From positions 12,806,948 through 12,870,947 of the forward strand of contig NC_092673.1 in NCBI RefSeq assembly GCF_964355755.1: 64,000 nt of DNA, read 5' to 3'. The stretch is from Antedon mediterranea. Its lineage: Eukaryota > Animalia > Echinodermata. The notes under the pieces are model-generated. The model was not told where the DNA came from, ran no database searches, and saw nothing but the letters and a program-made list of their open reading frames with translations. The position numbers and the translations under genes were made by a program. Shown here one piece after another: positions 15,120 to 57,350 of this stretch; the first letter of the stretch is position 1, and each line of letters opens with the position of its first letter.

Positions 15120-16105
15120 ATGAAAGGTCAACTATCATTGTATCTGAGAGAACGGATTGTCCGTTTGAACGAGCTGGGCATGCGCCAAAGAAGAATTGTT
15201 GATGTTCTCCGGGAAGAAGAGTAGGTGGAAGTTGAGAGACACACTGTGGGGAGAATAATTAAAACTTACAAGGAAACCGGTTCATGGGCTGCAAGAATTC
15301 GATCAGGGCGTAAACCAAAATTCACTATCGAGCACGCTCACTTCATTGACGACCTTTACCGAGATGATGATGAGTTAACTTCCTACCAAATATCGGGTAT
15401 CTTCCGTGACGTATTTGATCTAAATGTTTAGGCATCCACAATAAGAAGAAGCCGAAACAAGTTAGGATGGAAGAAAAGCGGACCAAAATACTGCCAAATG
15501 ATTAGCGATGTAAATAAGGTGAAGCGGTTAGAATTTTGTACCCGAATGCTAGAGGATGGAGATATGTTTGAAGACGTGATATGGACTGACGAGACTTCCA
15601 TTCACCTGGAGCAGCATGGAAAGGTGTGCTTCTACAAAAAAGGAGAGGAGCCAAAACTTAAACCAAAGGCTAAACACCCGGTAAAGGTTCACGTTTGGGG
15701 GGGAATCAGTTTCAGAGGTACCACCAATTTCCTAATTTTCGGGAGAAACATGAATGCGGAGTTTTATGTTAACGCTGCAACCGTATAGTCGTCACATGTT
15801 CCCTGATTCACATAGTTTCCAACAAGACAATGATCCTAAACATACAAGTAATTTATCCACACGATATATGGAAGAACATGGGATAAATTGGTGGAAGACT
15901 CAACCCGAATCACCAGATCTCAACCCGATTGAAAACGTCTGGCATCAACTGAAGAATAATCTTCGACGACATGCAAAACCAAAAAATCAACAGGAACTTA
16001 TCAATGGCATAGAAAATTGGTGGAAAACCACATTGACACCTGAATTATGCGGCAGATACATCCGACATATTCATAAAGTGATAGCTGTCGTGATCCGGAT
16101 ACTGA
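15120..16105 (+). pseudogene. Tc1-like DD34E transposase
   Basis: N-terminal HTH, RSGRKPK, IWTDET, VWGGIS and FQQDNDPKH...SPDLNPIENVW with 34 residues between the second D and E. Two in-frame stops and small deletions. The likely native C-terminus is SGY*, with TGA at 16103-16105. Confidence 0.93.
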
Positions 16106-16134
16106 AGTTTAAGACCAACATTTTCAAAACAAAT

Positions 16135-16170
16135 GGCTCTTTTCAGAGCCACAAATTGACAAAAGAGATT
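16135..16170 (+). terminator. Histone-type 3' stem-loop plus HDE-like element
   Basis: GGCTCT-TTTC-AGAGCC at 16135-16150, A/C-rich 5' flank, ACAAA after the stem, AAGAGATT at 16163-16170. Confidence 0.88.
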
Positions 16171-16838
16171 TGAAAGTATTACATTTTGCCAAACCACACA
16201 CTTACAAAAAACGAGTCATTCATCATATTTACATACAATATAAAAGTATAGTATACAACATTCCATTCATTAAAATATGAAAATTAGTTTTATTCAAACA
16301 ACTTAAGAAATGCTAAGCCTTAAAAAGTACATAAAATAATATATCAATGATTGAGCACTTTTAGTGGATATGTGCGCTATATAAATTATTTATTATCATG
16401 ATTGCAGCGTTGTGTTGCATGTACGGTTGTTCAGTTTCATGTATTTTGTTGTTTATGTGACCACTAGAGCGTGAACAGCGCGTCTACACAGTATAATAAG
16501 ACCTGGGATTGAAAACATAAAATGGAATAGAAATGTTGTACGGTCATGCTTAAATTTAATCAAAATAAAACTATGGTAATTCCAATTCTTAATTAATTTG
16601 ATAATTATCAAGTCAGATTCTTGAACATTGCGAAAATGATTGAAACGTCAAATTTACCTGAAATTATTCAATCTGTCAATATTATATTAATTTTTATTTG
16701 TGTATGCCTTTTATGTTGTGTGTTATTTCACACAACATGTTATTTATTATTATAATAATAATTATTATTTAGAGTTTAATGTGGTATGTTTTGAAGGTGA
16801 CTGGTTTCTATGTGGGGTTTGCCATTTTAAATGCTTTA

Positions 16839-16868
16839 AATCTCTTTTGTTTTTTTTGGAAAAGAGCC
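16839..16868 (-). terminator. Damaged histone-type stem-loop plus HDE-like element
   Basis: The minus strand reads CAAAACAAAC-GGCTCTTTTC-C-A(n)-CAAAAGAGATT. The 3' arm AGAGCC is missing. It begins 18 nt after the TAA of the BEN gene. Confidence 0.7.
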
Positions 16869-16886
16869 GTTTGTTTTGAGATATAA

Positions 16887-17490
16887 TTAGAAATCGATGA
16901 ATGGTTCAGCAGGTTGGGGTTCTTGAATTTGTTGCATCGGTGCTCGTGGTTGGAGTGGTGCTCGTGGTCTGGGACTTCGCAGACACCTGCATCCCTCGTC
17001 GATCGCTAACACACAAAGCTTCCACGTTCGTGTTTGTTCATTCAATGGAATTGTATAGGATTTGATGACTCAATGGCCCTGTTTTCCCATTAACGTTACT
17101 CATTCGCATCTCATTCTTGGTGAATAGTTTTCTAACAAGTCCGAGTGCAAAAATTTCTTTTAGAAGTGGCCCACCTTTTGACTTCTGCAACGGCATCTCT
17201 ATGCAGTACGTCGTCACCCACAGAGTTGCGGGGGAGGCGACACAGTTATTTTAAAATTCCTGGGCGATCAGTTCAGAGACGATATTTTTTATATTTTGCG
17301 TCAGGTCGGCCAACCAAGGAGGGGCTTCATTATGTTTTGTGTCGATGTACTCACGTAGTCGCCGTTCCATTCCTGCAATACTGTCAAACACATCTACTGC
17401 TGGGGGTACTTCAGGTTCTGGTTCTTCTACATCTGACTCTTCAACATGCATACCATCGCCTGTTACGTCCCCGCGAAGAAACACCCTGGG
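16887..17490 (-). pseudogene. BEN-domain gene 3' part (type B), convergent with the Tc1-like gene
   Basis: The minus strand, across frameshifts, reads ...ATSKRNF-ALGLVRKLFTKNEMRMSNVNGKTG...TWKLCVLAIDEGCR...EPFIDF*, with the stop at 16887-16889. Confidence 0.8.
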
Positions 17491-17496
17491 TACCTG

Positions 17497-18066
17497 TGGC
17501 CGTATTCACCAATCTCACTTAGGCTAAGGGAAATACTTACCCTTAAAATTTAAGAATTCCCTTAACAAAGGAAAACACTTAAGGGGTATTCACAAATGAG
17601 TTAAGGGATTCACTTACCTAAGGGAAACCCTTACTTTTAAGTAAAACACTTAAGGGAAAAATATATCAATATTCATGAGTTTCCCATTGTCCAATCAAAA
17701 AGAGAAACAATGTGTCCAATATCCAATCACTTTCCCTCATTCAAACCTCATTTGCATATTCAATGAAAACTTTTGCTGGCAACAAAAAAATGGCAGCAAC
17801 TAAACGAAAACCTAATTGGAAGGACGAAGAAAAGGAGGTGTTGGTAGCCGAGTATGGAAAAAGAAAAAATATTTTAAGAGCTGCTTTTGATAGTAAAATA
17901 ACCTATCAACAAAAAACAACAGCCTGGCAAGAGATTACCGCTGCTGTCAAACAAACAAATCCAACTGCCGGCAGGGACCAACAAAATGTCCAAAAAAAAT
18001 GGGAAAACCTTGTGTCGCAGGCTATGCAGAACATTACATCGTTCAAAAAAGACATTATGCAAACAG
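17497..18066 (+). mobile_element. PIF/Harbinger left end with a Myb/SANT-like exon (ATG 17790, donor after 18066)
   Basis: Terminus TGGCCGTATTCACCAA, repeated CACTTAAGGG subterminal motifs, and protein KRKPNWKDEEKEVLV...KTTAWQEITAAV...RDQQNVQKKWENL. No right end found. Confidence 0.75.
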
Positions 18067-18442
18067 GTAAAATTTAGTTTAATATTATGACTGTTTGTAG
18101 TCCTATAAATACGTTTTAATGCCAAAATGTAGTTGTTGTTAGGGAACATCACTCCAATGGAATAGGCCGATATGCTTCTTTACTTAGACTAACTTTAATT
18201 AGTTTTTTGCCGGAGATAGGCCCTAGAGGCCGGGAGGCCTTTTATTTAAAAACAAAGTTGATCATGATTGATTAGTTAGGAGGACTCGCGATAATACACG
18301 CCCACCGTACAATAGATAAAATAAATCGTAAATTTTGTTTAAAGTCTTAGAGTAAAAAAATGGGCATTGAAATGTGTGTGGGTGTGTGTGTTAACAACCC
18401 CAGAGTTAAATTATTGAATAAACTTTTTTTTAATCAACTTAC

Positions 18443-18836
18443 GTCTTTGACCTTCGGTTTTTTTGCAGCCTGTTTTGGTTTCGGTGTCGACGTTTTTGTT
18501 AGCATTGCCGCACGCTTTGACGTTGTCGGTTGCTCGTCGTCATCGGTATCACTATCAATCAGAGTCTTCTTCGCTATCCACGTCAGTGTCTTGGGCTTGC
18601 CCACTCTTCAACAATTTTCTTTCCAATTCACGCAATTCATGGGGATTATTGGACAGTTTGCGGATGACTGCAGGGAGCAAATTCCCCTCCCATAGTACCT
18701 CCACTGCTGCTCCAGACGAAACATCACCGACGATCAATTTTGTTTTAACGATACTTAAACTTTCTTCTTCGGGAAAGTAAACTAACGCCTCGCATGGAAT
18801 ACTTGAACGTTGACGAGCTGACATAGGTTTAAACAT
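18443..18836 (-). pseudogene. First exon of a BEN-type accessory gene (ALVYF N-terminal domain)
   Basis: EALVYFPEEESLSIVKTKL..VEVLWEG..IRKLS aligns with HALVYFDSDESTAIVLSKKL..VKMVYNK..IVELS at 30143. GTAAGT donor at 18442. TATAAAA (18888-18894) and CCAAT (18914-18918) lie upstream on the minus strand. Confidence 0.7.
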
Positions 18837-19240
18837 TTTGTTGATTCAGAAAACTGAACTGGTACATGAACATTGAAATGCTCGTACTTTTATAGATTGT
18901 GAGCCCTGCTCTGATTGGCTGGAGAACATAAAACTTTTAACATGCACAAACATAATTGTACACAATTGGTCAGCTAGCTTTTCTCATTAACGTAACGCCC
19001 ACCCACACAATAACAAACACCAATCCATCTTTATTTGTAAATGTGATAATTAGCTCTAAAATACATGAGTTAAAAAATATTTATAAATGTTTGTGCAGTT
19101 GATTTTAAAAAAAAACACATTTTAAAGATAAAAAGAACAATAAAGTATCCCATACTGCGCGGTACACATATGCTTTCGTTCAAACCCAGCAAAATACTAC
19201 ACACAACTAAATATAATATATATATATATATATAATTATA

Positions 19241-19407
19241 TGCACTGATGAAGAGCTAGTGTTGCCCGAAACCTCTAACTTTTCTGGCTGGCTGACTTTA
19301 TCATTTTGATTTAGCTTTTCGCTTCTTTTTTTTTTGTATCTCCATTGAGATTCAGCCACTGATACCCACAGCATTGTCATTTTTTCAGTTATTTGCCTTT
19401 GGATTTA
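19241..19407 (+). mobile_element. Penelope-like 3' fragment with a degenerate hammerhead core, inside (TA)n
   Basis: CTGATGA...CGAAAC at 19245-19272 and a T-rich tail, with AT microsatellite on both sides. Confidence 0.55.
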
Positions 19408-20019
19408 TAATTATATATATATATATATTATATAAAATATAAAATATAATATTTTGCAAATTCAAAGTAGGTCTACAATCTTACTTAATTCAAAATTAAC
19501 ACAAAAAACAATACAATACTAATTATATCAAACGAAATAATAATTTCAGCACTGAAATAATTATGAATTATGTTAAAAATAGGTGATTAGTCTATTTTGC
19601 ATTCAATTTAATCTGCTTCTACACTCCTTGTTTCAGTTTCATCATACAGTATATGATATTTTGCAGTACATCATATCTCTACGTTATCACACAATAGTGC
19701 ATTATTATTACATTGCAATGTTGATGTGCTAGGCCGTATCATCTTAATTATTTAAGTAAAAATAGACTTATGTTCTGTTCATTTTGATGTTTATTCTTTT
19801 GTAAATTTGGCTTTTACAATCTATTGTAAAATTCTAATTTATTCTAGTTTAAGTGTAAATAAATAAACTCTTGTTGTTAATTGTTTAATTGTTAAATTTG
19901 ATTTGTGTATAATGTCTTACGGCCTTGTCGAAAAACACCATTGAGGTGAACAAGTGTTACCGTGATTAAATAAAGTTTTTATTATTATTATTATTATTAT
20001 CATCAAGGGAACACGTTTG

Positions 20020-20977
20020 TAGCGATACATTGTACGCATTATCGTTGGGGTTGAAATGGATGTGGGTATGACTATGATTTCCCATATCTCAAAAACTATT
20101 TCTGCGTCGTCTTTTCACTTGCGAAACATCCGAAGGATTCGCAAGTTTATAAATGAGACAGCAGCTAAACAACTTGTTCATGCTTTTGTCACTTCACGAC
20201 TAGATATGGGAAACTCTTTGCTATACGGGCTACCACAAAAACAACTCCACAGGCTCCAACTGATTCAAAATACAGCGGCACGAGTTGTTAAAAAATTACC
20301 AAGATATGGACACATATCAAATACTTTGGAAATATTGCATTGGCTCCCTGTTAGGTACCGCATTGTTTTTAAAATATTACTCTTTGTTTTTAAGTCTATA
20401 AATGGCATGGCTCCTGAGTATATTTCTGACATGCTTAGGCTGTATGTTCCCGGACCGGACGTAATCTGCGTTCTAGTGACTCGCTGCTTCTACATCAGCC
20501 TAAGTCTCACCACTCATGGGGTGACAGAGCATTCTCCGTTACTGCTCCTCGTCTGTGGAATGCTCTACCGAGCTCTATAAGATTTTGCAAAACTGTTGAT
20601 ACTTTTAAAAAATTATTAAAAACACATTTATTCATTAAGGCATATGGAAATCATGAGGTTTCTTAAAGTTTTTTAGACTTACAATTGTTTTTTATACCTT
20701 TTCCTGGCCAGCATTATCTTTGGGGTGCCTCTGTCTTGGTTGTTGTCTCTGAGCACCCGGTCGTCTGTGGCAAGGCAAATGTGTATCCTGCTCCTTTGTT
20801 TGGTCACCTAGGTAGGGGTCCGGGACCGCGACAGAACGACAACAGATGGGGACCCTCCAAAGAAATTGCATTTTATTTTTCAGGAATTTGTATGATTTAT
20901 TTCTTTTTTATTTTTAAATGCGCCTTGAGCACTCTGGAGTGGTATGTGCGCTATAAAAATCTTATTATTATTATTAT
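20020..20977 (+). mobile_element. 5'-truncated L2/CR1-group LINE (RT C-terminus, 3' UTR and tail)
   Basis: FHLRNIRRIR...LVHAFVTSRLD.GNSLLYGLP...LQLIQNTAAR...LHWLPVRYRIVFKILL; ends GCGCCTTGAGCAC...GTGCGCTATAAAAAT-(TTA)n. Confidence 0.9.
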
Positions 20978-23525
20978 TTTCTGGAATTCGGTAATTCCTC
21001 TACTTCCCAATTATATGTCTATTTTTTTTAAATTGCTGTAAATGTAAGCCTATTGTGTTGAGATTTTTTTTCAATCTGAATATTGTTTTAACCTGCTAGT
21101 TCTAGAAATAATTTCGCCCCATAATAAATGCAGAAAGGTCAAGGGTCTGACCCAGAATTCACAGTTCAATCAAAACAAAATGTCTGCGCCCGTGTTGTAC
21201 ACGTTGTAAACTTGGCATAAACATGTGGATTATACAAACAAATAAAGTGATTTATGAATTGAAACTCGGGAAACAGGTATATTTTTTTATTTGATTGGTG
21301 TTCAAGTTTCAAAACCTATACAATTTTGGAAAATAAATGCGTTTTTTAAATAATTAGTGTAAGTGGGCCTCCTCTAGTACCAACCTTTAAAAAGTAATTT
21401 TTATGTAAAGTACATCTTGACAAACGGTGGCGTGTATTAAAGAACAATATAATGGATGGCAATCATAACCAATCTAAAACCCTTTAATTTAGGTTTTTGA
21501 AAAAGAAACAACAATTGAAAAACAAACATAGTTTCGTAATTTATTTTTAAAATTTTATTTTGTTCTATTTTAATTTAGGTTCTTCAGGTACTTCGGCAGC
21601 AGACAATTTAAATTCTTCTGACAATACTGCAGCTTCATTTTTGATCAACCTGATTCAGAAAAAGGTTGGCAACCATATTTTTCGGAGTATAGGTCAACCC
21701 CCAACTTTGACCTAGAATATCATTGATTTTGGTATGACCTGAATATAAGTCGAACCCCAAAATCGGGTATTTAAAACAACTTACTTTGAAGTTCAAAGAG
21801 CGCTAGAAATGTATGAAATGTGGTTGTTTGTTTACATTATTTAAGTGTAACCAATAATATTTATAAGACAATCTATTAATATTTATGTAAACCACAACGA
21901 CTTCGACTCCGTCTTCGCCAGCCTATAATAAATGCCATGTACTCAAAGTGATGTTTTATTGGGGAGGCGTTTATTCAAATAAATGTCATCCTAATAATTA
22001 ATACATTATTTAATTTAAACATCTTTTGAAACTAACTTCCGCGACAGAGTTGGCCGTTTCGGCCCAAGAAGGAAGACGTTTTAGACGGCTTGCAAAATGG
22101 GCAGACATCCCGGTCCTAACGGGACACAGATAGCCTACAGTTATTCCTGTCAGCTTACTCAATCAACTATCGGGATTTCACTCGATATTAAACAAAATGT
22201 CTTATCATCAAATCTCCCTATGTAATTTTATAATACTATTCCCCACAATATATTCCGATTCTTTATGGTGTATATTTAATTTGATCTTTATTAATTTGCA
22301 GTACAATTTTTATTTTTTAACTACCGTACCTTCACACGCGCGGTCCAAATAAACAAAAAACTAAAATGGCTATAGCCGGCCACGGCCAACTTAATTGTTA
22401 AAACCAGGAAGTTGCAAGGTAAACATGTGAACTTATCGTGAACCCAGAAATTACTTCGACCCGCGTACAATTGAAATTTAATCAAAAATGTTGTTATAAA
22501 ATCCTTTATAATATCTTCCTAAGATAAAAATATGGAACAATATCGTAATAGTGAAAACTAATGTTATCAAATTTACATTTCACGGCACATCTGAGATAGA
22601 TAAGGTTTTCCATTGTGCTCGCCTATCTCAGAATAAACCATAATTTATATATAGAAGCGCAATATTAACATCAAAATGAGTCTTTGTGATATATTAATAT
22701 TTTATTGACCAGTACTTGTTGGAGTTGTATTATTTTGTACAATGTAGGTACAGTCAACTCTCCCAATACCGGACTCTCCCAAAACCGGAATTCACGAAAA
22801 ACCGGACTTTTTTGGAGGGCCCAATTTGTCCCTATTCTAAATGTACTGTAATTTATTATGAAAACCGGAATACCCAATTCCGGAATCCGGACAAATTATG
22901 AAGTACAAAACACGAAAATTAGCGTCTGAAAACCGGACTGACAGTTAAAAAACTCCAAATATTTACGAAAACAACGTAACATCGTCGTCGCTGACTCGGA
23001 TTCAATACATTCACAAGTACAAACGCTTTTAACCATACCCTCATGCATGAAGTGCGCGACGTTTCGCGGTACGATCAAATAATGTTGCCATGGAGCACTA
23101 CACTGTGATTGACAGGTCAGTTCATTGTTAACCCACGAGGCAGCAATTGCTTTGTTGCGTATCGAACTGCGGTGGGCTTTTTCACATCGAAGCGCTATGT
23201 CTTAATGTCTATTGTTTTTAGGCGTCATCTCCACTAAATATCGGACGAAGTGTATCGCGTCTAAAAATAGCAGTTCGTCTGCACGCGACCGTAATTTAAT
23301 TTATCTCATTAAATTCTAATTTACATATTCATGAGGATTCCAGTTGTAGCCCCGCCCTTCAATACCGATGCAGAAACTTGCGACCGGTCGCGTCTGTACG
23401 CGTTGAACCATTTATCGAACTCTGGTGCGCCCGCTTGCGACTGTTGTGTGTTGTGTGATGTCACCGGGTAGCCAGGCAGTCGCGAAACTAGGCTACTTCG
23501 ATCGTCCGTTCGGGGAACGCGAGGT

Positions 23526-24406: not shown

Positions 24407-25215
24407 TTTTGTTACTGACTGCTTATTTTTAATATACATCCTTGTCTAATAAGTTGTGCACTATTTAATAATGCGGGTAGGGTGCATACTTTATTTTACT
24501 GTTAACATGATATCTAAGAAAAATAGTACTCTATGAGAATACCACCCAACAAAAAATCAGCTTTGGAAAAGGCAGTTTTGACGACCTAAAGAGCCAAAAA
24601 TGGTAGTCATACACACATTTCCCTGTAAATGATAAATAAAAGGTTGAGAACATTTTGCCATTTTCTTTACTAAAATGGATATCATAATTATAATGCTTTC
24701 TCTAGCTTGACAGTTGTCATTGGTGAAAACCATAGAAATATTATAATATCTATATGGTGAAACGTTGGCTGTAATTTACAACTAGTGCGTTCAAACCATA
24801 ACAATAACTAAAGTATACGTCCCCTATAACATACGATTTCATTCGACATTTGTTTTTTATTTTTGTGTCTTAGTTCTGAGTGTGATTAGGCTAATTGCAC
24901 CAAAACCTTGTGAATGCGAGTTTGGTGTATATCCAGCTTTTCACAGTTCAAATCCCCTCAAAGTCCTGCTGAGGAATTTTTTTCCTTACTTAGGTACTTA
25001 GGTAAAACAACGGTGGTCAAACTATAATAAAATTACTTTTAAGATTTATTTAATATAATTTATTGTAACGCTCACAAAATCGAAACGCCCAGTCGTTTCA
25101 TTTGTTCGAAAAAGCACTGAAAAGTCGGAAGAGTCCACTTTAGGCTACATTGTTACAGATACAGTTCCGGTCTCATTGAATTTATTTGTAGCATATCTTT
25201 CTTGTCGTCAGCATT

Positions 25216-27527
25216 ATGTTAAATACAAGCAATCACAAACCTTCAAGACTATTGACAAATTTGTTAATTGACACTTCGAGTGAAAACGAAAACCGGCCTC
25301 CTGTAAAACGAGCAATTGTAGACAAATTCCCGCAAATTATTGAAATAGCTAAAAACTTTATTGAAAGAAGTGGATTTGAAGCACATCGACGTCGCCAAAG
25401 CACCACCGGACACTGTGGAACTGGTCTGAAAGCGGTTCGGGACCATCTTCTTCACGAAGTACCAGGTTTGGCTGAGCAGCATCCCAATTTTAGTAAGTAC
25501 AACATTTGATAAATTATTATTTATATGGATATCCAAGTATATTAAATATATAATTAAACTAGGCCTATGAATCCGGGACGGGGACCCGGATGGATAAATC
25601 GACATAGCGTCGACTTTTGTAATTTACCTAGTATAATCATAAAGAATTTTCCATGGTATAATGTGATCATGCAAAACAATGACAACTTTATTAATTTTCT
25701 TTCTGTACTGTGCACCGCATGCTACAGGCCCCTCATCAAGGTCGTAACAGTTCAGCAAGGTACAAAGGTTTCATTGATGCTAAAGTTCCAAAAAAAGATA
25801 ATGGAAGGATGAAAGAAAATGACAATGCTCATTTTTACAATGCGAGGGTGAAGTATTGCCTTCAATTAAGTGCAGCATTTCCGGATGTGTGTAGTGTATA
25901 TTCTGTTGACAACAAAAACAAAGTGAAGATAGGTAAGATCAATCATATACAATTAAGAATTTTCAAATGTAACATCCACAGAATATTAACGGCCATACAA
26001 AATTGGGTGAGAATGTTAGGTGGATTCTGAAATAAATATTAATTAAAACAACTTATTTTACATTTAATTTGAATTGCTTATGATAATCTTGAAAGAAAAG
26101 CAGTTATGTAACGCAAAATTGTCGGCGAGGGAATGAATGAGAATGGGTTTTGATGATAATCTGGAAACTCTAAAATAATTTTGTGAAATGTGCTATATTT
26201 CGTTGGAAAATACTTTTCTTTAAATTAATACATTATTTCTTTATTTAAGTGTACGAACCTAAATACAAAGTCATATCAATTATAACCAAGCCCTACCAGT
26301 AGACCATACAAAGTGTCTTGAGAATGTGTATTGCGTCAACTCTATGTTTGTATTACTATTATTATTATATTATTATTATTTATTGTTTTTATTTTTAAAG
26401 GAAAAGATGTCCCAGCTGTTGATCGAAGGACAAAAATAAGAAGAATATTTCCAACCATTGACAGGCCGGTGCTTTTAGATCACGACTTCCCAAGTCATTC
26501 AGGCTACCTAATTACATTATGTGGATATATGAAATTGACACTACCTAACCCCCCTGAAAAATCGATTGATTCGCTAGGTCGGCTAGAATACAAACTACAT
26601 AGGAATGGCCCCGTTACCATCATTAACAGGGGACCCATGACAAAATGCACCGTAGCCTCCCATATCAACGACCTGCTGCCAATAGTGAAAGAGGAAGTCC
26701 GTACAGGAAAATCAATTTTAACTATAATTGCAGATGGCGGGTGCGACTTTAATTCCGGTCATCATACAAATTTACTATATTATGCTAGACTGTTTAGAGA
26801 TACTGGCTTAGATGCTCTGATTGTGACAGCGTATGCTCCAGGACAATCGGCTCTAAATCTGATCGAACATGCGTGGGCTCCTTGTACATTAGCGTTAACG
26901 TCTGTTATGTTCACGGATCGACTTGAATGCGAAGACAGACCGCCATGGCAGCAAGGTTTAAACGAAGAAGAAATGCGTCTGAAAGAATGTAAAGTATTTG
27001 ACAACGCACTAAAAAACTTAGAACAATACTGGAAAAGTGTACATTTTAGCGGCGTTCCGATTAGTGTAAGCCACTTATTGTCTTCGTCAAAAGAAACGCC
27101 TTATGATGACTACAGTCAAGTGCACGCTGTTATGGCGTCTAACAGCGGGAAAACGTTCAGACAAAGCAATCTTGTAGACGAGTCCCAGTTTATGCTTCAA
27201 CATATTGATAAAAGGAAAGGTTTTTTAGTTTTTTCTAAATGTAGAGACCCTAACTGTACACATTGCAGCCGCAATCCTATAATTGCCCACGATGTAATGA
27301 ATGCCTGTTTTAATAGGGATGGATTTCCTTCACCCATGCAAAGCGAGAAGGAAGGACACTTCCTCACCATTCATGAGGTATTAAAGTTAAATTCATGGGA
27401 TACTCTCGATCAGCTGATGCCACCTGCTGGTGGAAGATGTGCCATTTGTCCCGCATATGGATTCAACAGCAACGCAGAGATAACTTCTCACAGGAGAAAG
27501 TACCATCCAAGGCAGCAGGTCCTTTAG
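25216..27527 (+). CDS. Zator-like DDE transposase (spliced, possibly damaged)
   Basis: Exons at about 25216-25491, 25715-25932 and 26401-27527. Motifs SVDNKNKVKIG, LDHDFP, IADGGCDFN and AYAPGQSALNLIEHAWAP, plus a C-terminal C2H2-like CAIC..HRRKYH. The exon 2 acceptor is not clean. Confidence 0.8.
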
Positions 27528-27973
27528 TTGCTATGTTTAAAACTACTTGTAATTTATATATGTTGGCCTATTTCAGCCTTTGTACACTGAAATATATCTG
27601 TATTTTATTGTATTTTTATATATCTAGTTTTTTATGAATTTTTTACATACTGTATATTTTTATATAACGTTTTAAACTTTTTTAAACGTTTTTTTATGCT
27701 GTTTGTTGCCTTTAGGAAGACAAATTTTAAAATATTATTTTTGGACAATAAAGTAATCTTGATTATCAATACTGTATACATATCGTAGTATAACTGCAAT
27801 GATCTATTGATGTGTGAATCAGAATTAAAGATTTCCATTTTATGAATTTATTGTACTGTCTTGCTTGTATACTTTTGTATTATGGTATTTTTATTTATTT
27901 ATTTTTTGCTTTCAGGGAATGTACGGCTATTATTATTTGAAGTTCAAACAAATAATAATTTCCAAATTCTTAA

Positions 27974-28512
27974 AGATGTATTGTCCCTTGAAACACAAAA
28001 AATGAAAAAAAAAATATTTTAAATTTAAATTGGCCATATCAAAGTGATATTAAAGTTATTCACTTTAAGTCGAAAATTCGAGGCAAAAACAACAAGTTCA
28101 CGTAATTAACAGGTAAATTAATTTAATTACATTTCGTCTGGAAAATCGTCACGAGTGAAAGTAAACAAAGATTTCAAACCACGAGTATGCATGATGCTAA
28201 TTAGGATTGTTTACAACTCGTCGCGGTTGAGAAGGTGTTTTCACACAGATCGCGAGAAAGTTTTATGATTATGCATACAGAGTAGCCAAACAAGCGCGTT
28301 GCATTATGAATATGTTTTGATCGAAAACTTTGACTGGAAGTCAAAGTTATTTTTTGAACAAAAAAACGTCCGTATTTCGGTTAAATTTTTTTTTTTTGGA
28401 ACAAATTTTTGGTAAAAGTTAATAACTATCATGATACTTAAAAATGACACACTTTTTTTCGAAATATTAGAAAAAATTTTTTTGGGGAATTACTCAAAGG
28501 GACAATACATCT
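27974..28512. mobile_element. Kolobok-type MITE (TTAA TSD)
   Basis: TTAA|AGATGTATTGTCCCTT ... AAGGGACAATACATCT|TTAA. Confidence 0.88.
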
Positions 28513-36252: not shown

Positions 36253-36254
36253 CA

Positions 36255-36412: not shown

Positions 36413-36516
36413 AGGACAGAATTATTGCAAAAATCCCAACGCATTCAACATGTTGTCGTTGCGTTGCGATGGGCTTTCAACGTATAGTTGTTTATTCAAC
36501 GAAAGTCATTATCAGC

Positions 36517-45720: not shown

Positions 45721-45740
45721 TTAATAAATAATTATTTTAT

Positions 45741-47245
45741 CGTCGTGAGGTGGTTTCCCGATTAATCGTACGATCAAACGGTACTGGGTATGATCAACTA
45801 GCGTTCGTGTTCCCACCTAATCATCCATTCATAGAAGTACTGATGAAGATATCAATCTGTGGCGACAATAGAATGGACCCGAGACCTGGCTATCTTCGAC
45901 TTTTAAATAATAGAAAGTTTAGAAAAATGTTTTTGTTAAACTAGAAATGTACGTTGTATGTATATAGAAAAATGGTTGTAATTTTCAAAATTACGTTGTA
46001 TAAGTTGCGATGTGAAAAACTGTTATTTTATCGTTAGTTGTCGTGTACATAAAGCAAAAATATAAATAGCCTATAATAAAATAAAATAAAAATCGTTAGT
46101 AAAACTTTTAAAAAGAGTAAAGATATAAGGAAGAAAAGCAAAGAGATCATGGAGCGGCTGTACCAGAAAATACAACACTAAGTATTGTAAAGTTAAAAAC
46201 TAAAAATTTAGGCGATCTTGTCAAAGGTCAAGCGCCTTCAGCCTGCCACGTTTCGATATTCAATATTGAACTTGACCTGACGTGGTTCCACAATATCTTT
46301 ATATGAAAATGGTAGAATTGATAGAAAATAATAATTAATTCAAAATTTACCTAAAAATGGTTTTGAACTGAATCGATGAATGTCTTGTCGTCGTATGGTT
46401 TTGGTTTGGTTTAAAAGTATGTTCGATAAAGTGCGTGAGCGTATTAGAATGAAATGCTAGCGTATACAATGTGCGCGATGTCAAGTTGTGTACTGTGTGA
46501 TACATGTAAGATTATAAGTGTATCGTACATTGTAGTAGAGCGAAAATAACATAGGTATAAAGGTAGGATATAAATAAGTAGTATAGGATGTATAGAAAAG
46601 GGAATGGGTTGTTAGTTACAGGAAAGATTTTGAATGTCGTGAGGTGGTTTCCCGATTAATCGTACGATCAAACGGTACTGGGTATGATCAACTAGCGTTC
46701 GTGTCAAGTTCAAGGTCAAGTTCAATATTGAATATCGAAACGTGGCAGGCTGAAGGCGCTTGACCTTTGACAAGATCGCCTAATTTTTTAGTTTTAACTT
46801 TACAATACTTAGTGTTGTATATTCTGGTACAGCCGCTCCATGATCTCTTTGCTTTTCTTCCTTATATCTTTTTTAAGTTATACTAACAATTTTTATTTTA
46901 TTTTATTTTATTTTATTATATTTATGTTTTTGCTTTATGTACACGACAACTAACGATCAAATAACAGTTTTTCACATCGCAACTTATACAACGTAATTTT
47001 GAAAACTACAACCATTTTTCTATATACATACAACGTACATTTCTAGTCTAACAAAAAATTTTCTAAACTTTCTATTATTTAAAAGTCGAAGATAGCCAGG
47101 TCTCGGGTCCATTCTATTGTCGCCACAGATTGATATCTTCATCAGTACTTCTATGAATGGATGATTAGGTGGGAACACGAACGCTAGTTGATCATACCCA
47201 GTACCGTTTGATCGTACGATTAATCGGGAAACTACCATACGACAC
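45741..47245. mobile_element. Foldback element with ~540-bp inverted arms
   Basis: 45741-46279 is the near-exact reverse complement of about 46713-47245. ORFs 45750+ and 47238- translate almost identically. Confidence 0.85.
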
Positions 47246-48387
47246 TAGAGTCTTTTGATCCAACAACCATAGCTGAAAACTGGTTATCAGAAGGGCAGCG
47301 AAGCAGGAGGCCTATGTATAGAAAATTGCCTGATGGATTGTACTACAGTAGTTCACTGAATGAATGATCCCTGGCAAAACATTATATTACTACTGTCATA
47401 TCTTACATTGTATTCTTTAATCATTTAATAACAAAATAAAGTTATTGGTTGGTTGCCTCTGATGGTAGTGTTACTGTTGTACATGCAGTTTGCTTTAGTG
47501 TGTTTTGGGGGTTTTTTTGTACGTGGGGTGCGGTTAGGGGAAGGGTGTCGATGAACGAAGTTGATCAAGTGCTACTAACAAAATTTGTGGTGCTACCAAA
47601 AATTATTATGAGCCATCATAAAAATGTTATAGTGCTACCAAGTGAAAAAGTTAATTTTCAGCTCTGTTATGAGTTATTGTTTTGATGAAACAATTTGATG
47701 AATTTTCCCTTGACGTAAGGCCTACCTGTACATCCCTTATTTATTTATTATAGGTCACACACACACGTGTAACAAATGAGATGATGACATTACAACGAAT
47801 ATCTAACTAAAAATTTGCGACTTAAGGTTCCCCATTATTGCAAATTTATGTTGAGATGTTTGACATCAAAGTAATATACTGTAGCTTTAATAAGTGTCAA
47901 AAATGTGATTATGTAACTCATATTCTTATAAATAAAAAACACAAATAACAAAACAAAATAAACAAAACCGAATTGATTAAAAATGGAACTAAAAGGTTAG
48001 AAAACTGTATAGTAGTAATACTAATAGTAAGCAATGTCAAACCAAAAAATATATATAATAATCAATAGAATAACAGGATGCATTCATATTCAACGAATAA
48101 TCACTTTAATTTGAAAACATAGAACTTCATAAAAACAAACAAAATAATAACAGGAATAATGCTATCGACGAAAGGAAATAATGCAGAAATTGCGTCCCAT
48201 ACATCTTTCGAGACAAGTAGGGGGTTACCCCGGTGTACTAGATCACACACAACAGCCACTGTCACAAACTCATCATATACACTAGGCCCTCTGGAAGAAC
48301 AGTCTTTGACTGAAGAGGCTACCCAGTATAATAAATAAATAACTCAAACACTCAACGATTAGCTCGGCAGAAACGTGCTGCTGAATA

Positions 48388-51300
48388 AAGGGTCTTTCAC
48401 ACCTGTTCCGGCACAGTTCCGGTCCAGCGAATCGAACATCAATGTTTTCATGCGGCTATGCCTAATCAAAATGCGCCTAGCCTAGGCCTGTAACGCGAAA
48501 TTTGGTCCGGGGCCAAAACTGGTCCGGTCGGATCGATTTTGGCGTTGAAACAGCCGCTAAAACAGGTCCGGCTAGGCCAAAACCGGCCTTCAAAATCGCT
48601 TATTTATCCTTAAAAATGTCATAAGAAGCGCCTAGAAAAAGTCCAAATGGTTGAAGTAAACTATGCTTTGAGTAAATATACTAAATATTACCGTAAAATC
48701 AAAAAGAAATTATCGAAACGGAGAGATTAAAAATGTGCAAGAATAAATCGGCGCTCGGTTTGGAATCTTCAAATATTCCATTGTAAAATTCGTAGGATAA
48801 AGTAATATCCCCCTCTGATTTTTTCTTTTTTTTTGAGGAGGGGGGTGGGGGGGTGTTAGCATAGTAAAAAAGAACTTTTCATTCATTGTATTCATATATT
48901 TTGATTAAATAAGGTTTGATTATATATTCTCACATATTTCCTCATTTTATCGTTTCAAATTAATACATTTTCAGTATATTACCGGGCGGTTTAGAATTTG
49001 TTTTTAATAATATTGTATAACTTTAACTTGCACTGAAGGGTTTAAAAAAGAGGGTTCAACATCAACGTTTTGTGATCGTATTTTAACGTACTGCATCTGT
49101 TTTAAAATGAAATGTCAGTAAAATATATAAAATGATCACCTATTTATTCTTCAAAGTGAGGAATTATATTTTAGTTATTCTTTGTCTGCATACATATTAC
49201 AAAATGTTGATTTCATAAATGCTCATGGTTTCAGCCGATACGATAGTAAATTAATTTGACACGAATTTAGAATAGCATGATATAAAACACTTTTGTTGTT
49301 TTTTTAAATTGATGAGAACTACTTGGCCTGCCTTTCCGCCAAAACAAAAAAGAACTTAAAATGTTTTCACTTATATTTATAAAAGAAAAAACAAACGGTT
49401 ATATTAAACCACAACTCCATTGGCTGTTGGTACAGTTTTTGGTCAAAGCTCCTTATATCTTGGCTCTGTGTGCATGTGAGACGCATCATACCCAAAACTT
49501 ATATTATTTTTTATTTGACAAAACAGATTTGTGTATTTATAGCACGTCCTTTTAATGAGGGAAGGTATGAAAGTTGTTTTCTCTAAAATGTTCGCACAAG
49601 TTGAAGATATTTGGCTCAATTTCACAATGTTGTACATCTTACCGATTGTCGGTAAATTCGCTTACAAAAATGACAGCATGTAAATCCAAAGCTCGCAGTG
49701 TAGCTTCATCTGCGTAATTGTCCACAAGAGCAGCATTTAAGGTTTCTTCAGTGATGTATAGTCCCAATATTTGCGGGCGAGATACTTGCGTATTGGATGG
49801 TATGGTCTGAGGATGTACTTTCGTTCCGATGTGTCAAGTAACCCCTCCTCTTGTTTTTCAACGTCCAAAACTGGCTCAACATGAGCACAAACAGTTGAAA
49901 GATACACATTTCTTTCCGAAATTTCAGCATCACTATTTGTTAATGGGCAATACTCCCAGCCATTGAAAATGTGGTTGATTCTTTCTTGTGCCATATTTGT
50001 AGACAATAGTTTTCGTCATTGTTGCACATGCTTAAATTTCCAACTCGGAGCCCCATGTTCCATCCTTAGACATAGCTGTATCACTTGTGTATTTTTCGAA
50101 TGATTTGCTGTCGCAGTTTTCAAAGATACGTCTGTTTTGGACATAAACTCTAAAATATGGTCCCTCATCACAATCATGGTGACTTTAGACACCAACAAGA
50201 ACGTAACTAAGCGCTCTAAAGCTGAGGCAGGTCCCGTCTCCGCGCATCCTGGCTGTTTTCGTGGGTTTTGCTGCCTTGTTCATTTCTCTTTGAAAAAGAG
50301 CATCTACTGGGTTTGGTGAACTAGCCTCACCACAGAATATCACATCATCTAATTGTTGATCAAGATGCTTGTCCTGTCTAACGTTTTGAGAGGGTCCTTC
50401 TTCCTTGTATTTCTCAGCATTGTGGTGTTCCATTGATTCATTTGCAGCTTTTTCGGACAGATTATTTGACAATTTAAAAGGCAGGTTGCTTCCATTGACG
50501 ATTAGTGGCGAACGGATGGTGAAGTACTGCCGGACGTTTGAGTGTTGGGGCAATCATCTTTTGATGAAGAGGTTGGTGAAAAGATATATGGCTTCAGAGG
50601 TATCCCGTTAACACGTTTGATAACACTGTCGTCATCTAGCCCTATCAGAGAATATGATCCCTTTCCCATTTATTTTCCAGTTTTCCTCCCTTCCTTTTTT
50701 TCCTTCGCAGATCTTTCATCAATACGTACATATGTTCCGCATTTGAATTCAGTTGGTTGTGCATGCCTTCTGTCATAATTGATTTTCTGTCTTTTCTGGG
50801 CCGTTTCGATGTTTTTTTGCGCAGTATTTTTTGAAACACGCAAATGGCCTAAATCATGTTCTAAAATTGATCAAAACGTAATTTTAAGCATTTTAAAATG
50901 TTAATGCGTGATTTCGCACGCAAGGCCCTGGTTAAGCGTACCATTTTTAATATGTTTACCTTAGTTGATGTATAGTGAATTTTATTGTTTTAAATTACAG
51001 AGTATTTACTGTATAAAAATATAAAACATAATACAGGTAACATATTATTACATTGTAACAATCAAATACAGTAGGCCTATTTAGGACTCATACATTTTGA
51101 ATTAAATATATGAATTGTGTTTTGCAAGATTGAAATAAACCTATAGGCTAGTCAAATAATTCATTGTATTGTAGCCTACGTTCAGCTCTATGTTATAACA
51201 TTTTGAGTTGAGCGACAATGGGTGTATAGACTTAGTCGCTCGCATCCATCCCATCCACGTTAGATGTGCCACAGCTTTTTCAGCTGCGGTCCTGGGTTGC

Positions 51301-52347
51301 GGTGTAAAGATTTTTTTTTTAATTACAAATATTACCAGTAGGCCTAAATAATGATATTAGAGCGTAATAATTGGATTCTAAAAAGTTCATATTTTGGATA
51401 ATTTTGAGAAAATGGAAAATTAACCCTCTTATTTTTACACCAACCAGTGATATTATTAGAGCGTTTCCGTAATAAGTAATTGAATTCTTAAAAGTCCATA
51501 ATTTGGGGTGATAAAAAAAATCTCTGTACTAAATAATTGTTTTACCTTCTTTTTTTTCGCTAAGAAGACTATTACGAAACTCGTGTTCGTCGTACAGCTA
51601 AATTCGTGAATGTGGGAACCGGTCATTCCACTGTGGTGTCGTTTGTCAATTTTTTATTTTTATTAATGTTAGTATTGCTACCCATATCGATTGTTATTAT
51701 CGTCGTTGTTTTATACTATTAATAGAGAGGCCCTTGGTGGCCACTTGCACCCCAAAATGTGGACTGGAAAAAAAATAAGGCGGGTGTAATTTCTTACAAA
51801 GGCACAAAAAAAAGATACTGATAGCAGTAATGACAACAACCTAAAATAATAATACTAATAATAATTAACGTTCTATATTTTATTATTAATCATTATTGAA
51901 TACGCCCAAGACGTATTCAGTTTGTACATAATATCTAAGATCTAAGACATAATATAAAATTACTAGAGGGCGCTATTAGTTTTAAACAAACTGAACAATA
52001 GAATATCCCAAAATCCGATTAGAGTTTCTTTAATTAGTGTTTCGATAATTTCTTTTCGTTTGTACGGTAATATTTAGTATATTTACTTTAAGCATAGTTT
52101 ACTTTAACCATTTGAACTGTTTGCAGGCTTCTTAACACATTTTAAAGAATAAATAAGCGATTTTAAAGGCCGGACCAGTTTTGGCCTAGCCGGACCTGTT
52201 TTAGCGGCTGTTCAACGCCAAAATTGATCCGACCGGACCAGTTTTGGCGACCAAAATCGATCCGGCCGGATCAATTTTGGCGTGACAGGCCTAGCAATAT
52301 TCGATTGGATTTTCCAGCACCGGACCGGAACCGTGCCGGAACAGGTG
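48388..52347. mobile_element. Palindromic MITE split by the Ginger insertion
   Basis: Left arm AAGGGTCTTTCACACCTGTTCCGGCAC at 48388; right arm ...GTGCCGGAACAGGTG resumes at 52300-52347. Confidence 0.75.
48489..52287 (-). mobile_element. Ginger1-like element, internally deleted (integrase C-terminus plus OTU domain)
   Basis: TGT...ACA termini, ~235-bp imperfect TIRs and a GGCC 4-bp TSD. The minus strand reads NIETAQKRQKINYDRRH..F..G..VLMKDLRRKKRKGGKLENKW (GPY/F region), then RMRGDGTC.FRALSY...GTWGSELEI...HVEPV (OTU), all frameshifted. Confidence 0.82.
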
Positions 52348-52349
52348 TA

Positions 52350-52532
52350 AAGGGTCTTTCACACCTGTTCCGGCATTGTTCCGGTCCGGCGAATCAAACA
52401 TCAATGTTTCGTTTTCACGCGGCTATGCGCCAATCGATATGTGCGTAGCCGCGTGAAAACGAAACATTGGCGTTTGATTGGATTTTCCGGCGCCTGACCG
52501 GAACCGTGCCGGAACAGGTGTGAAAGACCCTT
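52350..52532. mobile_element. Intact palindromic MITE, same family as 48388
   Basis: TA|AAGGGTCTTTCACACCTGTTCCGGCA ... TGCCGGAACAGGTGTGAAAGACCCTT|TA. Confidence 0.88.
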
Positions 52533-53537
52533 TAAAGATAGGAATATTCATTACCGACAGAGGGCGCTGTGTATAAAGGGAACACAAATTGTATATATGA
52601 TTTATGTGTCGGATATTTCGGATATGACGTCGTGAATACTTGCCAAACAATATCAAATACCTTTTTACCGTGAAAAAAAATATTTGGCGTATTTTACGAC
52701 GGTAACAAGATTTTAACTAGATTTTACGTACGGAAAACATTGAAGATTAAGTTTTTGGATAGCAGATCGGTTTTCCTTGGATTTTGAAATATAAAGGTAA
52801 GTTTGTTAGATTATTATATTCCTTAGCGTAAAAAAGTGAGAGTTTGCGAAAAGTGACTTTATTTACAATTGTCTAGGCTAGGCCATTATAGAGGGCGCAC
52901 TACATTTCGCCTAGGCTGATTAGTGGATTTTCCAAGGGAAGAAAATAGACAGAGAGGGGTTGCTTGGCCTAGACTATAAGAAAATAATTGATTGTCTTAT
53001 TTTTGTACAGTTTTAAGTTTATTTATTTTCGTTTGTATGTTTATTTTAGTTTTCATGTTTTTTTATGTTTATTTTAGTTTTCATGTTTTTTATGTTATTT
53101 ATTTACATTAATTACATTATTAACTGTAAAATATGTATGTAATTTTTTTTTTTTTTTTTGTATTACAGTAAAACTACTATTACTTTACTGAATATGTATG
53201 TGCCTATTTCTATTTATTTTATTTTGTTGATTATTGTAATTAATATGTAATTGTCTTATATAAATGACGACAAACGTGGTGATGATGGTGAAGGCATTGG
53301 AATAGCATATTTTACTACTATAAATATTATATAAGTACCTGTAAATATATTTTACTTTTTAATAAATCATCTGTCTTTAGGCTACTCTACTTTAAAATAA
53401 TTAGGTTATAGTGGATATTTAATTTATATATTGTGAACAAAAAAAGGCATGTTTAACAGACCCACAAGGAGATGTACTATACTCCAAACATACTGTACTT
53501 AAAAAACATATTCCTACCATAGATTCAAGGGAGCAAA

Positions 53538-56500
53538 ATGGAGGATTCTGATTTCATTGGTCCATATTCAGCAGATCTAGGGATAACAGTATCAAAATTA
53601 AAAGAAGATAATTTTACACTTGATGGTGCAAAATTAACTAATGGTGCTGTATTAGAAATGCGGGACATGGTAATCAAATTAAAAAAACCTATGTCAGTTC
53701 TTTCCTGTTGGATAATTCATATTTTAAATCAGAATGTCTCACAAATAAATCCTAAGTCTATAATTTCGAAAGTTGATACTCTTAAGCTAACTAGGCAAGG
53801 TTTAAAGAAGAGCAAAGCTGCCAGTGTCCAACAAAGGCTAGCGACTTTCTTATCTCAAGATTTTGTGATTCCTGCTCTTAAGAATCCAGTGAAGAAGGCT
53901 GTAAAAAGACGGATGGTTGATGCACCTATCATATCCTGCAAAGACTGTGAAACCAAAGAATCTGTAAACAAACAACTAGTAGAGGAGATAAAGGAGCTTA
54001 AGAAGAACATTGGTAAGTTAGAGAAGACGCCAAAAATATTGGTTGTAAAGAGAAGTGGAGTCAAAAGGTTAAACCAAACAATCAGAAGGAAAAACATCGT
54101 TATTAAGTCATTGAAAAGCAAGGTTAAGAAAATGAAAAAAGAAGTTGCTCAGAAGAAACCTGAAGAACAAGTCTTGAGAGTAAAGTCAAAGCTTTTAAAA
54201 ATCAAGAAACGGAACCGCAATCTGAATAAGAAATTGAAGAAGACCATCGAAAAGTTAGAGGTAAATCAAAAAAAAGGTAAAGATTTTACGGAAAGGCAAC
54301 ATGCAAAATTCATCAAACTGCAAGAAGAAAACCGTCTGTTAAATGAAGAAATTTCAGAGCTGAAATTAAATTGCAAAAGTGTAATTCAAACCAAAAAAGA
54401 TGGGAAAACCTTCAATTGGAATGTTCGAGAAGCTATTTATTTCTGCTTAGAACATGAGGTACCAACCACCAATATTTCTGCTGTTTTGCGGTATGCGGTG
54501 GAAAAGCTAGCAAATGCGGAGATAGAAGTTTTGCCAGACTCTGTCACTTGTTTGCGGATGTTGCGTGAAATGCGTGAATTATCCAGAATTCAAGTGAGGT
54601 TTTAGAAATGGCAACAGACACCACCATAAAATATGACGGAACCACGAAAAAGAGAAATCATTTTCTGGAAGTACAAATTGCTGATCAATCGACAACATAC
54701 ACCACAGGGATATCGTTATTGCCATCAGGTACAGCTAATGCCAATGTTGAAGGAATTCTACAAACAGTACAAGATATAGGAGCTGCACGACAAGCGACTC
54801 ATGGATCAAATTCATCACAATCAATCCTAGATTCAATTTCCAACTCTATGACAGACCGTTGCATTGTGAACAAAGTGGTCAATGCTAAGTTGAAGGAAGC
54901 AATGACAGAAGGCAACCGACAAATGAATGAATTCTTTTGTGCTATGCACCCATTAGACACGTTTGCAAAATCAAATGATAAGGTAATTTCTAAGTGGGAA
55001 AAGGATAGCTTGCCAACAGAATCCAATCAGATGTCATTCCGAAGACGAAGTTTAAGCGGGGCACAAAGTTTTATTGGTGCTGTATGTAGGTTGTGCTATA
55101 ATGACGGTTCTGGTCTACCATCTGAGATGTGTACCTTTCTGCGGAGTAAGAATATTCGTCTAACTAAGATTTTGTCTCCAGAGATCGGTAGCCGCTTCCA
55201 CATATTATATCGTAATGCTGGAGCTGTTCGCTTACTAACTCCATATATTCAAGAGTTCTTTACGAAGGTATGGCCACCAACCAATGATCTGCATCGAGCA
55301 GTGTTGTCTGACAGCAAGATTCAGCAATACAGTACAGGCTGTTGAGCACTTGGATTGATTGGCAAATACATTTCGGGTCCATGGATGTCCTTTGTTGAGA
55401 GAGACCAGCATATCCTTGAAATGAACATCCCTTTCATGCAGGCTGTAAATAAGCTGGAAGAGTGGAAGATTGATCCATCTCCTCTTGTAAATGGCACTGA
55501 ATCAAAATCAATATTTGAAACAGTGCCTTTACATAAGGATGCGGTATTTGCTTGCCTGACAACATCACATAAAGATGATGTTCAAGTAAAGGATTTGTTG
55601 GTCCTTCTCATTGATGTCATCATAGACGTATGTAAAAGGCAACTTGAAGACCAATTACCAGGCGGAAGTTTCTTCAGTCCATCGGAAGAACTAAAAGTTC
55701 AAGCAAAATCGTGTGTCAACAACAACATCAGTGGCGAAAGAATCTTTGGCCTCTTAGACCACTATATCAAAAGGGCTCCAAATGCTACTTTAAGCTATGC
55801 AGAGAGTAAGGTCACATACAAGACAAACATGACATCTGCATGGTTGAGCACTAAGTCAGAAGATGAGAAGGAGGGACTTCTTTCTACTGCTCGCATGCTG
55901 AGTATTCGTAGCAGGAAGATTGATGCCACACGACAACTGTCTGTGCTTAATGAAAAGAAGTTGCACCTACAGAAAAAGAAAGAAGAACTGGTTGAGAAAG
56001 ATGATCGTAGGCTACTTAGGGAAAATCTACTTTGTGATCTAATGAAATATGGAGGATTGTGGCAAGATCCAAGCAAAATGGACAACCAACTGAGTGAGCT
56101 GTCATCAAAGAAACAACAAGTACTTGCTCTGAAGAACCAACTTAACATCCGAAGAAAAATTGTTGAACAGAAGGCAGATCCATCACTTTTTTGTTTCTCT
56201 TCAAAAGGTAAGCCACATTCGCTGGAAGAACTAAAAGGAAATTTACACATATTAATGCAAGCTAACATTTCTGAGGAAGATGAAATTACAAAAATAATCA
56301 TTCAACCACAAGCATTGTTGGGAAGAAAAATAAACCATCTTTGGTCAGAATGTGATGAAGAAGAAACAGTTGATAGATGGTATGAAGGTACTGTTAGCAG
56401 TTTTGAAATGTCAACCAGAGAGTTCAAAGTCATATACCAAGACCCGATTAGCAAGAAGCAAATGGATGATGTCTATTTGGAATTAGATGAAATTGTGGCA

Positions 56501-56539
56501 GATATGAAGAGTGGCGACCTCTTAGTAGAATGGGATTAG
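53538..56539 (+). pseudogene. ~1000-codon CxxH-type DDE transposase (hAT/P/Kolobok-like fold, family unresolved) with an N-terminal Lys-rich coiled coil and a C-terminal Spindlin-like Tudor domain
   Basis: Three consecutive ORFs joined by one frameshift (about 54597) and one in-frame TGA (55343-55345). Motifs YDGTTK, SMTDR, FFCAMH, GSRFHIL and NNISGERIFG. Confidence 0.8.
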
Positions 56540-57278
56540 TCGTGAGTGACATATTTACTGTAACCACGACTTTCTTATGTTGAATTTTTTTTTATTTTAT
56601 GCTAACAGTAACTACAGACTAATTTATATAGTCACAAAAACTAAACTTTTTATACTGTAATGTATAATTGGCACAGTATAGTATGATATTGATTTGTTTT
56701 GATTTGACTTAACTGTACTTGGTTGTACTGTACAGTATATCCATATAATATAAATCCATGTTGTGTTGCTTTCAAATTTTGTTGTTTTTTTTGTTGTAAT
56801 TCTGTATTCTGTACTGTAACAACTTTAACTTGTACCTTAAACTATTGATTTTTTAGTATTTTTCCAAGTTTCTGTTAAAATTATGATAAGTACCAGTCAT
56901 ACATGTTATTTTTGTCAACTTGTTTCTGTTCAAATTTGATGAACATGTTGTTATTGTTTTGAGCAATACTATATAGTGCAAAATTAGCATGTTGTTTACA
57001 GTAGTTGCAATTTTAATATTATAAAGCAATCATGACAACTAATTAAACAAATTTAAAATTTTGTATTGTAGCCTACCATATTCAAAATGATTGTTTTTCA
57101 TTCTATTCTTTTTACGTTGTATATATAATATAATATTGCTAAAATTCTTTTTTTTTTCCTTTTTTTAAATAGGATGGATCTGGTCGTTTCTGAAGAACAC
57201 TGTTGACAATGTTGAAAAAAAAAAACTGGAAAAAAAAACCTGAAAAAAAAAACCTGAAAAAAAAAACTCAAACCAAAC

Positions 57279-57350
57279 GGCTCTTTTCAGAGCCACCCAA
57301 ACTCAAACCAAACGGCTCTTTTCAGAGCCACCCAGTGTTCATAAGAGATT
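57279..57350 (+). terminator. Two tandem histone-type 3' stem-loops plus HDE-like element
   Basis: CCAAAC-GGCTCT-TTTC-AGAGCC-ACCCA at 57279-57294 and 57314-57329 (35-bp duplication), with AAGAGATT at 57343-57350. Confidence 0.9.

Follow-up and report, generated by a model that had tools for sequence, protein, structure and literature searches.

Histone-type 3′ end signals beside DNA transposon genes in Antedon mediterranea and on transposon relatives from corals

Genes of DNA transposons in a 64,000-nt stretch of the echinoderm Antedon mediterranea (contig NC_092673.1 of assembly GCF_964355755.1, positions 12,806,948 to 12,870,947; hereafter the window) are accompanied by the stem-loop and downstream element that form the 3′ ends of replication-dependent histone mRNAs. 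The signal is real, conserved at the family level, matched to the host, and spread over several transposon superfamilies. We consider it probable (about 75%), judging from sequence, that several unrelated DNA transposon families co-opted 3′ processing by SLBP and U7 small nuclear RNA (snRNA), and that their transcripts would be cut into mRNAs without poly(A). The copies in the window are dead relics of such elements. In histone mRNAs, the hairpin is the binding site of SLBP, U7 anneals to the downstream element, CPSF73 cleaves 5 nt past the stem, and the message is broken down when S phase ends, according to passages of a recent preprint (bioRxiv 10.64898/2026.10.14.759114) that mention neither transposons nor non-histone genes. 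Histone mRNAs are described, in the relevant part of PMC4604434, as the only known non-polyadenylated cellular mRNAs.

A sequence-only reading of this DNA had reported an exact 16-mer stem-loop at 16135, 57279, and 57314, and the 5′ arm and loop of the same hairpin on the minus strand at 16868. All of them are present. The hairpin search of the window, with up to three mismatches allowed, still returned only the three exact matches, while 100 shuffled windows contained 0.18 matches on average and none reached three. The Rfam model RF00032 (Histone3; gathering score, 34) matches all three sites, two above the gathering score (16130-16174, 38.0 bits; 57309-57354, 42.3 bits) and one below it (57274-57308, 29.8 bits). 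The copies at 57279 and 57314, previously counted separately, both exist but belong to one 35-nt tandem duplication. The signals in the window fit the rule for the 16-nt histone hairpin, in which the second pair is G-C and the third loop base is U, apart from the broken one at locus B (Table 1). This remnant (16868-16859, minus strand) keeps the 5′ flank, the 5′ arm, and the loop, while the 3′ arm is gone; it neither folds into a stem-loop nor matches Rfam.

The same downstream word, AAGAGATT, follows the hairpin or its remnant at loci A, B, and C as the reading had stated, though it lies 12 nt after the stem at A and 13 nt after it at the second C copy instead of 13-14 nt. By itself, AAGAGATT occurs in the window at the chance level (4 seen and 3.07 expected). 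The absence of histone coding sequence nearby was confirmed by tblastn with eight histone queries against the window (best E, 0.44), and no U7 snRNA was matched in the Rfam scans of the window and of the loci scanned. The placement of the signals on the sense strand, 3′ of non-histone transposon open reading frames (ORFs), holds close to the stop codon for A and B; at C, the hairpin is 740 nt away from the stop in the genomic sequence and its link to the gene is presumptive. The hairpin-to-stop distances are approximately 22 nt at A (from the stop assigned below), 18 nt at B, and 4-101 nt in the relatives of A.

Table 1. Features at the three signal-bearing loci of the window
Feature	Position	Strand	Basis or remark
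Histone-type stem-loop of A (16135-16150)	16125..16155	+	A/C-rich 5′ flank, ACAAA 3′ flank; 38.0 bits
Predicted histone downstream element of A, AAAAGAGATTT	16161..16171	+	
B, broken stem-loop and same downstream element as A	16838..16878	-	18 nt past the gene B stop
C, 35-nt tandem duplication with two stem-loops (57279-57294 and 57314-57329)	57264..57334	+	
Predicted histone downstream element of C	57342..57352	+	
Gene A, decayed Tc1/mariner-type DD34E transposase, intronless	15120..16112	+	Pfam DDE_3; 42 homologues; alignment
Promoter-like stretch of A, three CCAAT boxes and a TATA box	14960..15085	+	Motif match only
Gene B, decayed multi-exon BEN-like gene, convergent with A	16887..18870	-	Weak BEN-profile matches
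Inserted fragment with Myb/SANT gene, splitting gene B	17496..18306	+	Pfam Myb_DNA-bind_5; presumably Harbinger-like
Short repeat tail between the A and B signals	16351..16403	+	Resembles the 3′ tail of a piece at 20925-20978, which we take to be LINE-like (long interspersed nuclear element); high contig depth
Gene C, decayed DDE transposase, probably of the hAT fold, in a single coding stretch	53540..56539	+	18 homologues
Predicted 3′ untranslated region intron of C	56542..57172	+	Motif prediction

The conservation of the signal was examined in relatives of transposase A. A metagenome scan confirmed 357 relatives, and the best 80 of these 357 loci (labelled L with a number) were analysed; 12 of the 80 were set aside because their flanks were short or their C-terminus was truncated, leaving 68 testable loci. 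A stem-loop lies within 150 nt past the stop in 60 of the 68, whereas the same pattern has no match in the other 790,288 nt of the loci. The motif is kept by most of the testable copies, and eight lack it. A conserved coral-type downstream element accompanies the hairpin in 59 of the 60 positive loci, and the remaining one (L080) has a different A-rich element. When the loci are clustered, 17 of 23 clusters at 90% DNA identity and 8 of 14 at 80% are positive. The spacer between the stop and the hairpin varies among families, while the hairpin, ACC, and the downstream element stay, and the signal is retained across transposases that are only ~50% identical to each other. In 15 distinct hairpins, all 90 stem cells are paired, and two of the six pairs have changed on both sides. 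Eleven of 11 chosen positive transposon loci match the Rfam model at E up to 0.008; their scores (25-37 bits) overlap those of eight coral histone genes (29-39 bits). The transposases of the coral elements are single ORFs, many of them intact (336-339 aa). TA-flanked terminal inverted repeats (TIRs) were found in 5 of 81 related loci, and the signal sits 0.9-2 kb within them in L081, L083, and L121.

In a tree of 35 rows, positive loci appear in several deep clades. L093 was scored as positive there with a contig that stops before the distal hairpin, and the hairpins of L060 and L062 are degenerate. L078 is nested among positives and has likely lost the signal, and its present state is likely a reversion to poly(A). 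At L078:6996-7150, which is close kin of the hairpin-bearing L054, no hairpin is seen, and AATAAA stands ~30 nt past the stop.

Many coral elements have two hairpins around a structured spacer, as in L027:1003-1120, L070:1903-2050, L082:1102-1245, and their relatives (z, −2.4 to −4.9). Within the spacer, a bulge of 8 nt or a loop of 10 nt displays ATTGCAC or ATTGTAC, and the motif is found in 41 of the 68 testable loci; we presume a resemblance to U1A-binding sites that inhibit polyadenylation. In some coral loci, the loop of the proximal hairpin copies varies. The tandem doubling of the stem-loop has separate origins at C (57264-57334), in L080 (1518-1557), and in the coral families.

The downstream element was compared with those of histone genes. 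A pattern scan of prokaryotic assemblies gave 30 stretches, many of which are contaminating animal contigs. Coral histone clusters identified with Pfam carry hairpin variants and a downstream element identical to those of the coral transposons; all 8 coral histone genes and all 22 coral transposon loci compared have the coral-type downstream motif, the two sets being taken from different assemblies and not from one genome. The same motif is absent from all five histone genes of another host and from both window signals. Conversely, an AAGAGA-type element occurs in both window signals and in four of the five histone genes of the other host. The coral assignment follows from an H1 that groups with Porites lobata for the histone clusters, and from a flanking gene nearest to Desmophyllum among the named matches for the transposon contigs. 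In the organism of the window, contigs that end just before the same flank of the hairpin encode H1-like and H2B-like C-termini at those ends; the downstream element is traversed by 4-6 further contigs in each run, which may or may not be the ones with histone-like ends. The comparison with host histone genes that the sequence-only reading had proposed thus points to a match, and the downstream element of the window likely is of the histone type of its host. Since the downstream element keeps the histone spacing and changes with the host, selection for U7-dependent cleavage is the most probable explanation.

Animal contigs are present in several bacterial assemblies (L102-L130 and G001-G005), with whole histone clusters and transposons among them. 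At L130:659-680 (also L137 and L171), a canonical hairpin precedes a purine-rich stretch, and no ORF is evident upstream of it. A U1 snRNA gene at L134:695-858 adjoins a histone H1 gene, like the linkage in Hydractinia reported in part of PMC5011920.

These data bear on two other explanations. Debris of histone genes without any function, or a short repeat dispersed in the genome and carried along, would be compatible with the depth of the stem-loop region, which is ~18-fold and ~100-fold over its flanks by contig depth in the genome of the window, and with the 5′ flank of C, which resembles host histone flanks. However, the high depth is likely due to histone clusters. Moreover, histone coding sequence was found neither in the window nor in the 80 loci, and the signal is always on the sense strand, adjoining a stop, with nothing in the remaining 790 kb. 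Its persistence between the divergent transposases and its change with the host also argue against debris, an explanation that the sequence-only reading had named as its own possible refutation. It is largely refuted for the Tc1-like family and hardly credible overall. Alternatively, SLBP may bind the hairpin in a longer, polyadenylated mRNA for storage or translation, without U7 cleavage, as in the long H2AFX isoform. Both H2AFX isoforms are bound by SLBP (PMC4604434, in part), and AATAAA-like words were noticed by eye, uncounted, in or after the downstream element at several coral loci. Nevertheless, all 22 coral loci compared keep a host-matched downstream element at the distance seen in histone genes. 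Such an element serves pairing with U7 and lies beyond the cut site. We regard binding without cleavage as very improbable.

Further families carry the signal. In the coral-contaminated assembly G001, all five exact stem-loops lie within transposons. One is ~40 nt past the stop of an intron-split PHD-MULE transposase with GT/AG sites at the exon ends, and another follows a Tc1-like transposase. The other three are in 0.6-1.0 kb TIR elements, two of which have HIRAN matches and one of which is a similar remnant as judged by eye; the TIRs of these short elements we take to be pogo-like. Three additional matches with one mismatch correspond to the proximal copy of L121, a fourth TIR element, and one unexplained site. 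The earlier suggestion that transposon lineages adopted the SLBP/U7 pathway is thus supported by the relatives of A, which keep the motif after the stop and inside the TIRs, and by these additional kinds of transposons. Viral contigs yielded no relatives of A or C and were rejected as carriers; the hairpin matches in them (21 and 3) have flanks that, where read, looked like chance or terminator sequence without a link to a transposase.

The frame of gene A is shifted near 15770 and interrupted by two in-frame stops, and its C-terminus is damaged. Because of this last defect, its stop was placed near 16110 from its relatives. The promoter-like motifs of A (CCAAT at −156, −110, and −86; TATA at −42) are not enriched in stem-loop-bearing relatives, and a shared histone-like promoter was dropped, as TATA was found in none of nine positive relatives. 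Gene B matches the BEN profile weakly and in two frames (E, 0.003 and 0.009), with no Pfam match. Its N-terminal piece matches a BEN gene adjoining the related transposase in L078 (E, 3e-5). The insertion that splits gene B was confirmed by a contig joining 17495 directly to 18307. Convergent BEN genes are frequent beside relatives of transposase A and lie inside the TIRs where TIRs could be found. Since relatives of A often have such a gene, A and B are probably two genes of one element, and the window therefore holds two lineages, not three independent loci. A search for the ends of the A/B element gave no right TIR and only left-end candidates, at 13761 and 14504. A recent inverted duplication as the origin of A and B was dropped, because the two show no significant resemblance once past the downstream element (199 of 2000 shuffles).

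The convergence of A and B, each with its own signal, would also suit the use of the pathway only as a compact and precise terminator against read-through into the convergent gene or the host flanks, giving less double-stranded RNA and silencing, with S-phase timing incidental. The recurrence of tandem double hairpins in C, L080, and many coral families points in the same direction. On the other hand, the coral relatives have no minus-strand signal for the second gene, and relatives with convergent BEN genes (L075, L085, L094, L096, and L100) do without the signal. A role in termination alone is therefore improbable in our estimation.

Gene C is broken near 54595 by a frameshift and once by an in-frame stop. 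The closest of its 18 homologues is a protein of the crinoid Antedon mediterranea (63%), and this one homologue on its own makes an echinoderm host probable. Gene C gave no Pfam hit and hence no Pfam match to hAT. The nearest named structural neighbours of its homologue P0043 (Atlas model) are DUF659/Dimer_Tnp_hAT clusters, with template modelling scores of 0.46-0.54 by query to hAT-annotated clusters and 0.81 by row to a DUF659 cluster, and a PDB sequence search for a C homologue returned nothing significant. The subfamily may be hATw.

Of the signals in the window, the one at C is tied least securely to its gene, the tie being drawn from position and predicted splicing. The double hairpin may belong to another gene or be a captured histone 3′ end instead of part of the hAT-like gene. 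The gap behind the stop, the lack of a detected TIR, the missing joint in a second C-like contig, and the lack of relatives with genomic context favour this alternative. The sense orientation and the downstream element common to A and B argue against it, as does the occurrence of the signal on other superfamilies in corals. In addition, the 740-nt gap contains a sole GT(A/G)AG donor, 2 nt past the stop, and a sole strong acceptor, at 57172; splicing out the predicted intron would leave 108 nt between the stop and the hairpin. A foreign origin of the C hairpin is accordingly rather unlikely, though by no means negligible. The sequencing run X5 was rejected as an RNA source, since it covers the predicted intron of C and thus is probably DNA.

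Several observations weigh against co-option of the pathway by transposon families and should be noted together. Other transposon genes in the window are without a hairpin. The signal is not universal among the relatives of A, being absent from 8 of the 68 testable loci and 6 of the 14 clusters at 80% identity, L078 among them, and its label on the tree requires 2-3 changes. The positive loci are mostly from near-duplicate coral assemblies, within the best 80 of 357 loci, and the relaxed patterns for the hairpin and the downstream element were composed after these loci had been viewed. The Rfam gathering score is passed by only 2 of 20 loci, of which ~11 are pattern-positive. Covariation in the hairpin stems, measured among related sequences, is only a little above that of shuffles (6 of 500). 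Introns, which canonical histone genes do not have, are present or predicted in B, C, and the MULE gene. As for C, its signal is far from the stop in the genomic sequence, no joint to the hairpin region is listed for the second C-like contig (1,209 nt), and no C relatives with flanking DNA were found in the fetched loci or in five genomes, bar one match of E 7e-4.

Under the co-option that we favour, SLBP would bind the transposon hairpin, U7 would pair with the downstream element, and the RNA would be cut ~5 nt past the stem. Given such processing, the odds are about even that transposon mRNA would follow histone mRNA levels, so that transposase would appear during S phase or in oocytes and cleaving embryos. 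Expression in S phase or the early embryo is the most likely benefit, since excision can then be repaired from a sister chromatid and cut-and-paste elements can gain copies. A broader proposal, which we put forward tentatively, is that mRNAs without poly(A) that do not encode histones form an overlooked class in marine invertebrates: at least three to four DNA transposon superfamilies may have independently captured the host histone 3′ signal and kept it matched to U7, which would confine transposase to S phase or early embryos and make it invisible to poly(A)-selected RNA-seq. If true, natural non-histone substrates would break the rule that only histone mRNAs lack poly(A), cut-and-paste transposition would be coupled directly and post-transcriptionally to DNA replication, and transposon expression in corals and other invertebrates would be under-counted by poly(A)-selected surveys. 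In horizontal transfer, a downstream element that matches one host might also restrict the range of hosts. The intact coral copies make the processing testable. A published description of histone 3′ signals on transposon genes was not found in a literature search, as judged from listings with little coverage of subscription journals and repeat-database reports.

Elsewhere in the window, decayed DNA transposon genes without a hairpin lie at 1858-6591, 12790-13350, 25192-32903, and 35261-37100 (DUF7869, DUF4371, and several BEN genes). A 1.5-kb near-palindrome occupies 45742-47243, and a 4.1-kb element with long TIRs occupies 48386-52534. Short repeats at 19236-19422 and 57531-57660 are of very high copy by contig depth.

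Gene A shares the DDE_3 and helix-turn-helix domains with IS630/Tc1/mariner transposons (DD34E), and its relatives share TA-flanked TIRs with them; the A-type element differs by its second, BEN-domain gene and its histone-type 3′ signal. In this comparison, the minor families L31 and HvSm were weighed. The family name L31 was rejected for A, as A is DD34E and L31 is DD37E in the part of PMC7325037 concerned. Gene C shares with the hAT superfamily the D..D..CxxH..E layout and structural neighbours of the DUF659/Dimer_Tnp_hAT type, and differs in that no convincing TIR or 8-bp target duplication was found at the locus; the layout itself we take to be a mark of the hAT family. With metazoan replication-dependent histone 3′ ends, the transposon signals have in common the 16-nt hairpin with its G-C pair 2 and loop U3, the A/C-rich flanks, and a purine-rich element 10-15 nt downstream (bioRxiv 10.64898/2026.10.14.759114, in part). 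The stop-to-hairpin distance is 18-100 nt in A, B, and most relatives, the usual histone range being about 25-60 nt. Unlike histone genes, the genes beside the transposon signals encode transposases, BEN-like proteins, or HIRAN proteins in mobile elements, some with introns. The closest parallels are Hydractinia H2A.X.1 and human H2AFX, in which, according to parts of PMC5011920 and PMC4604434, the stem-loop stands on a gene with an intron or an alternative poly(A) form as it does here; those are still histone genes and non-mobile.

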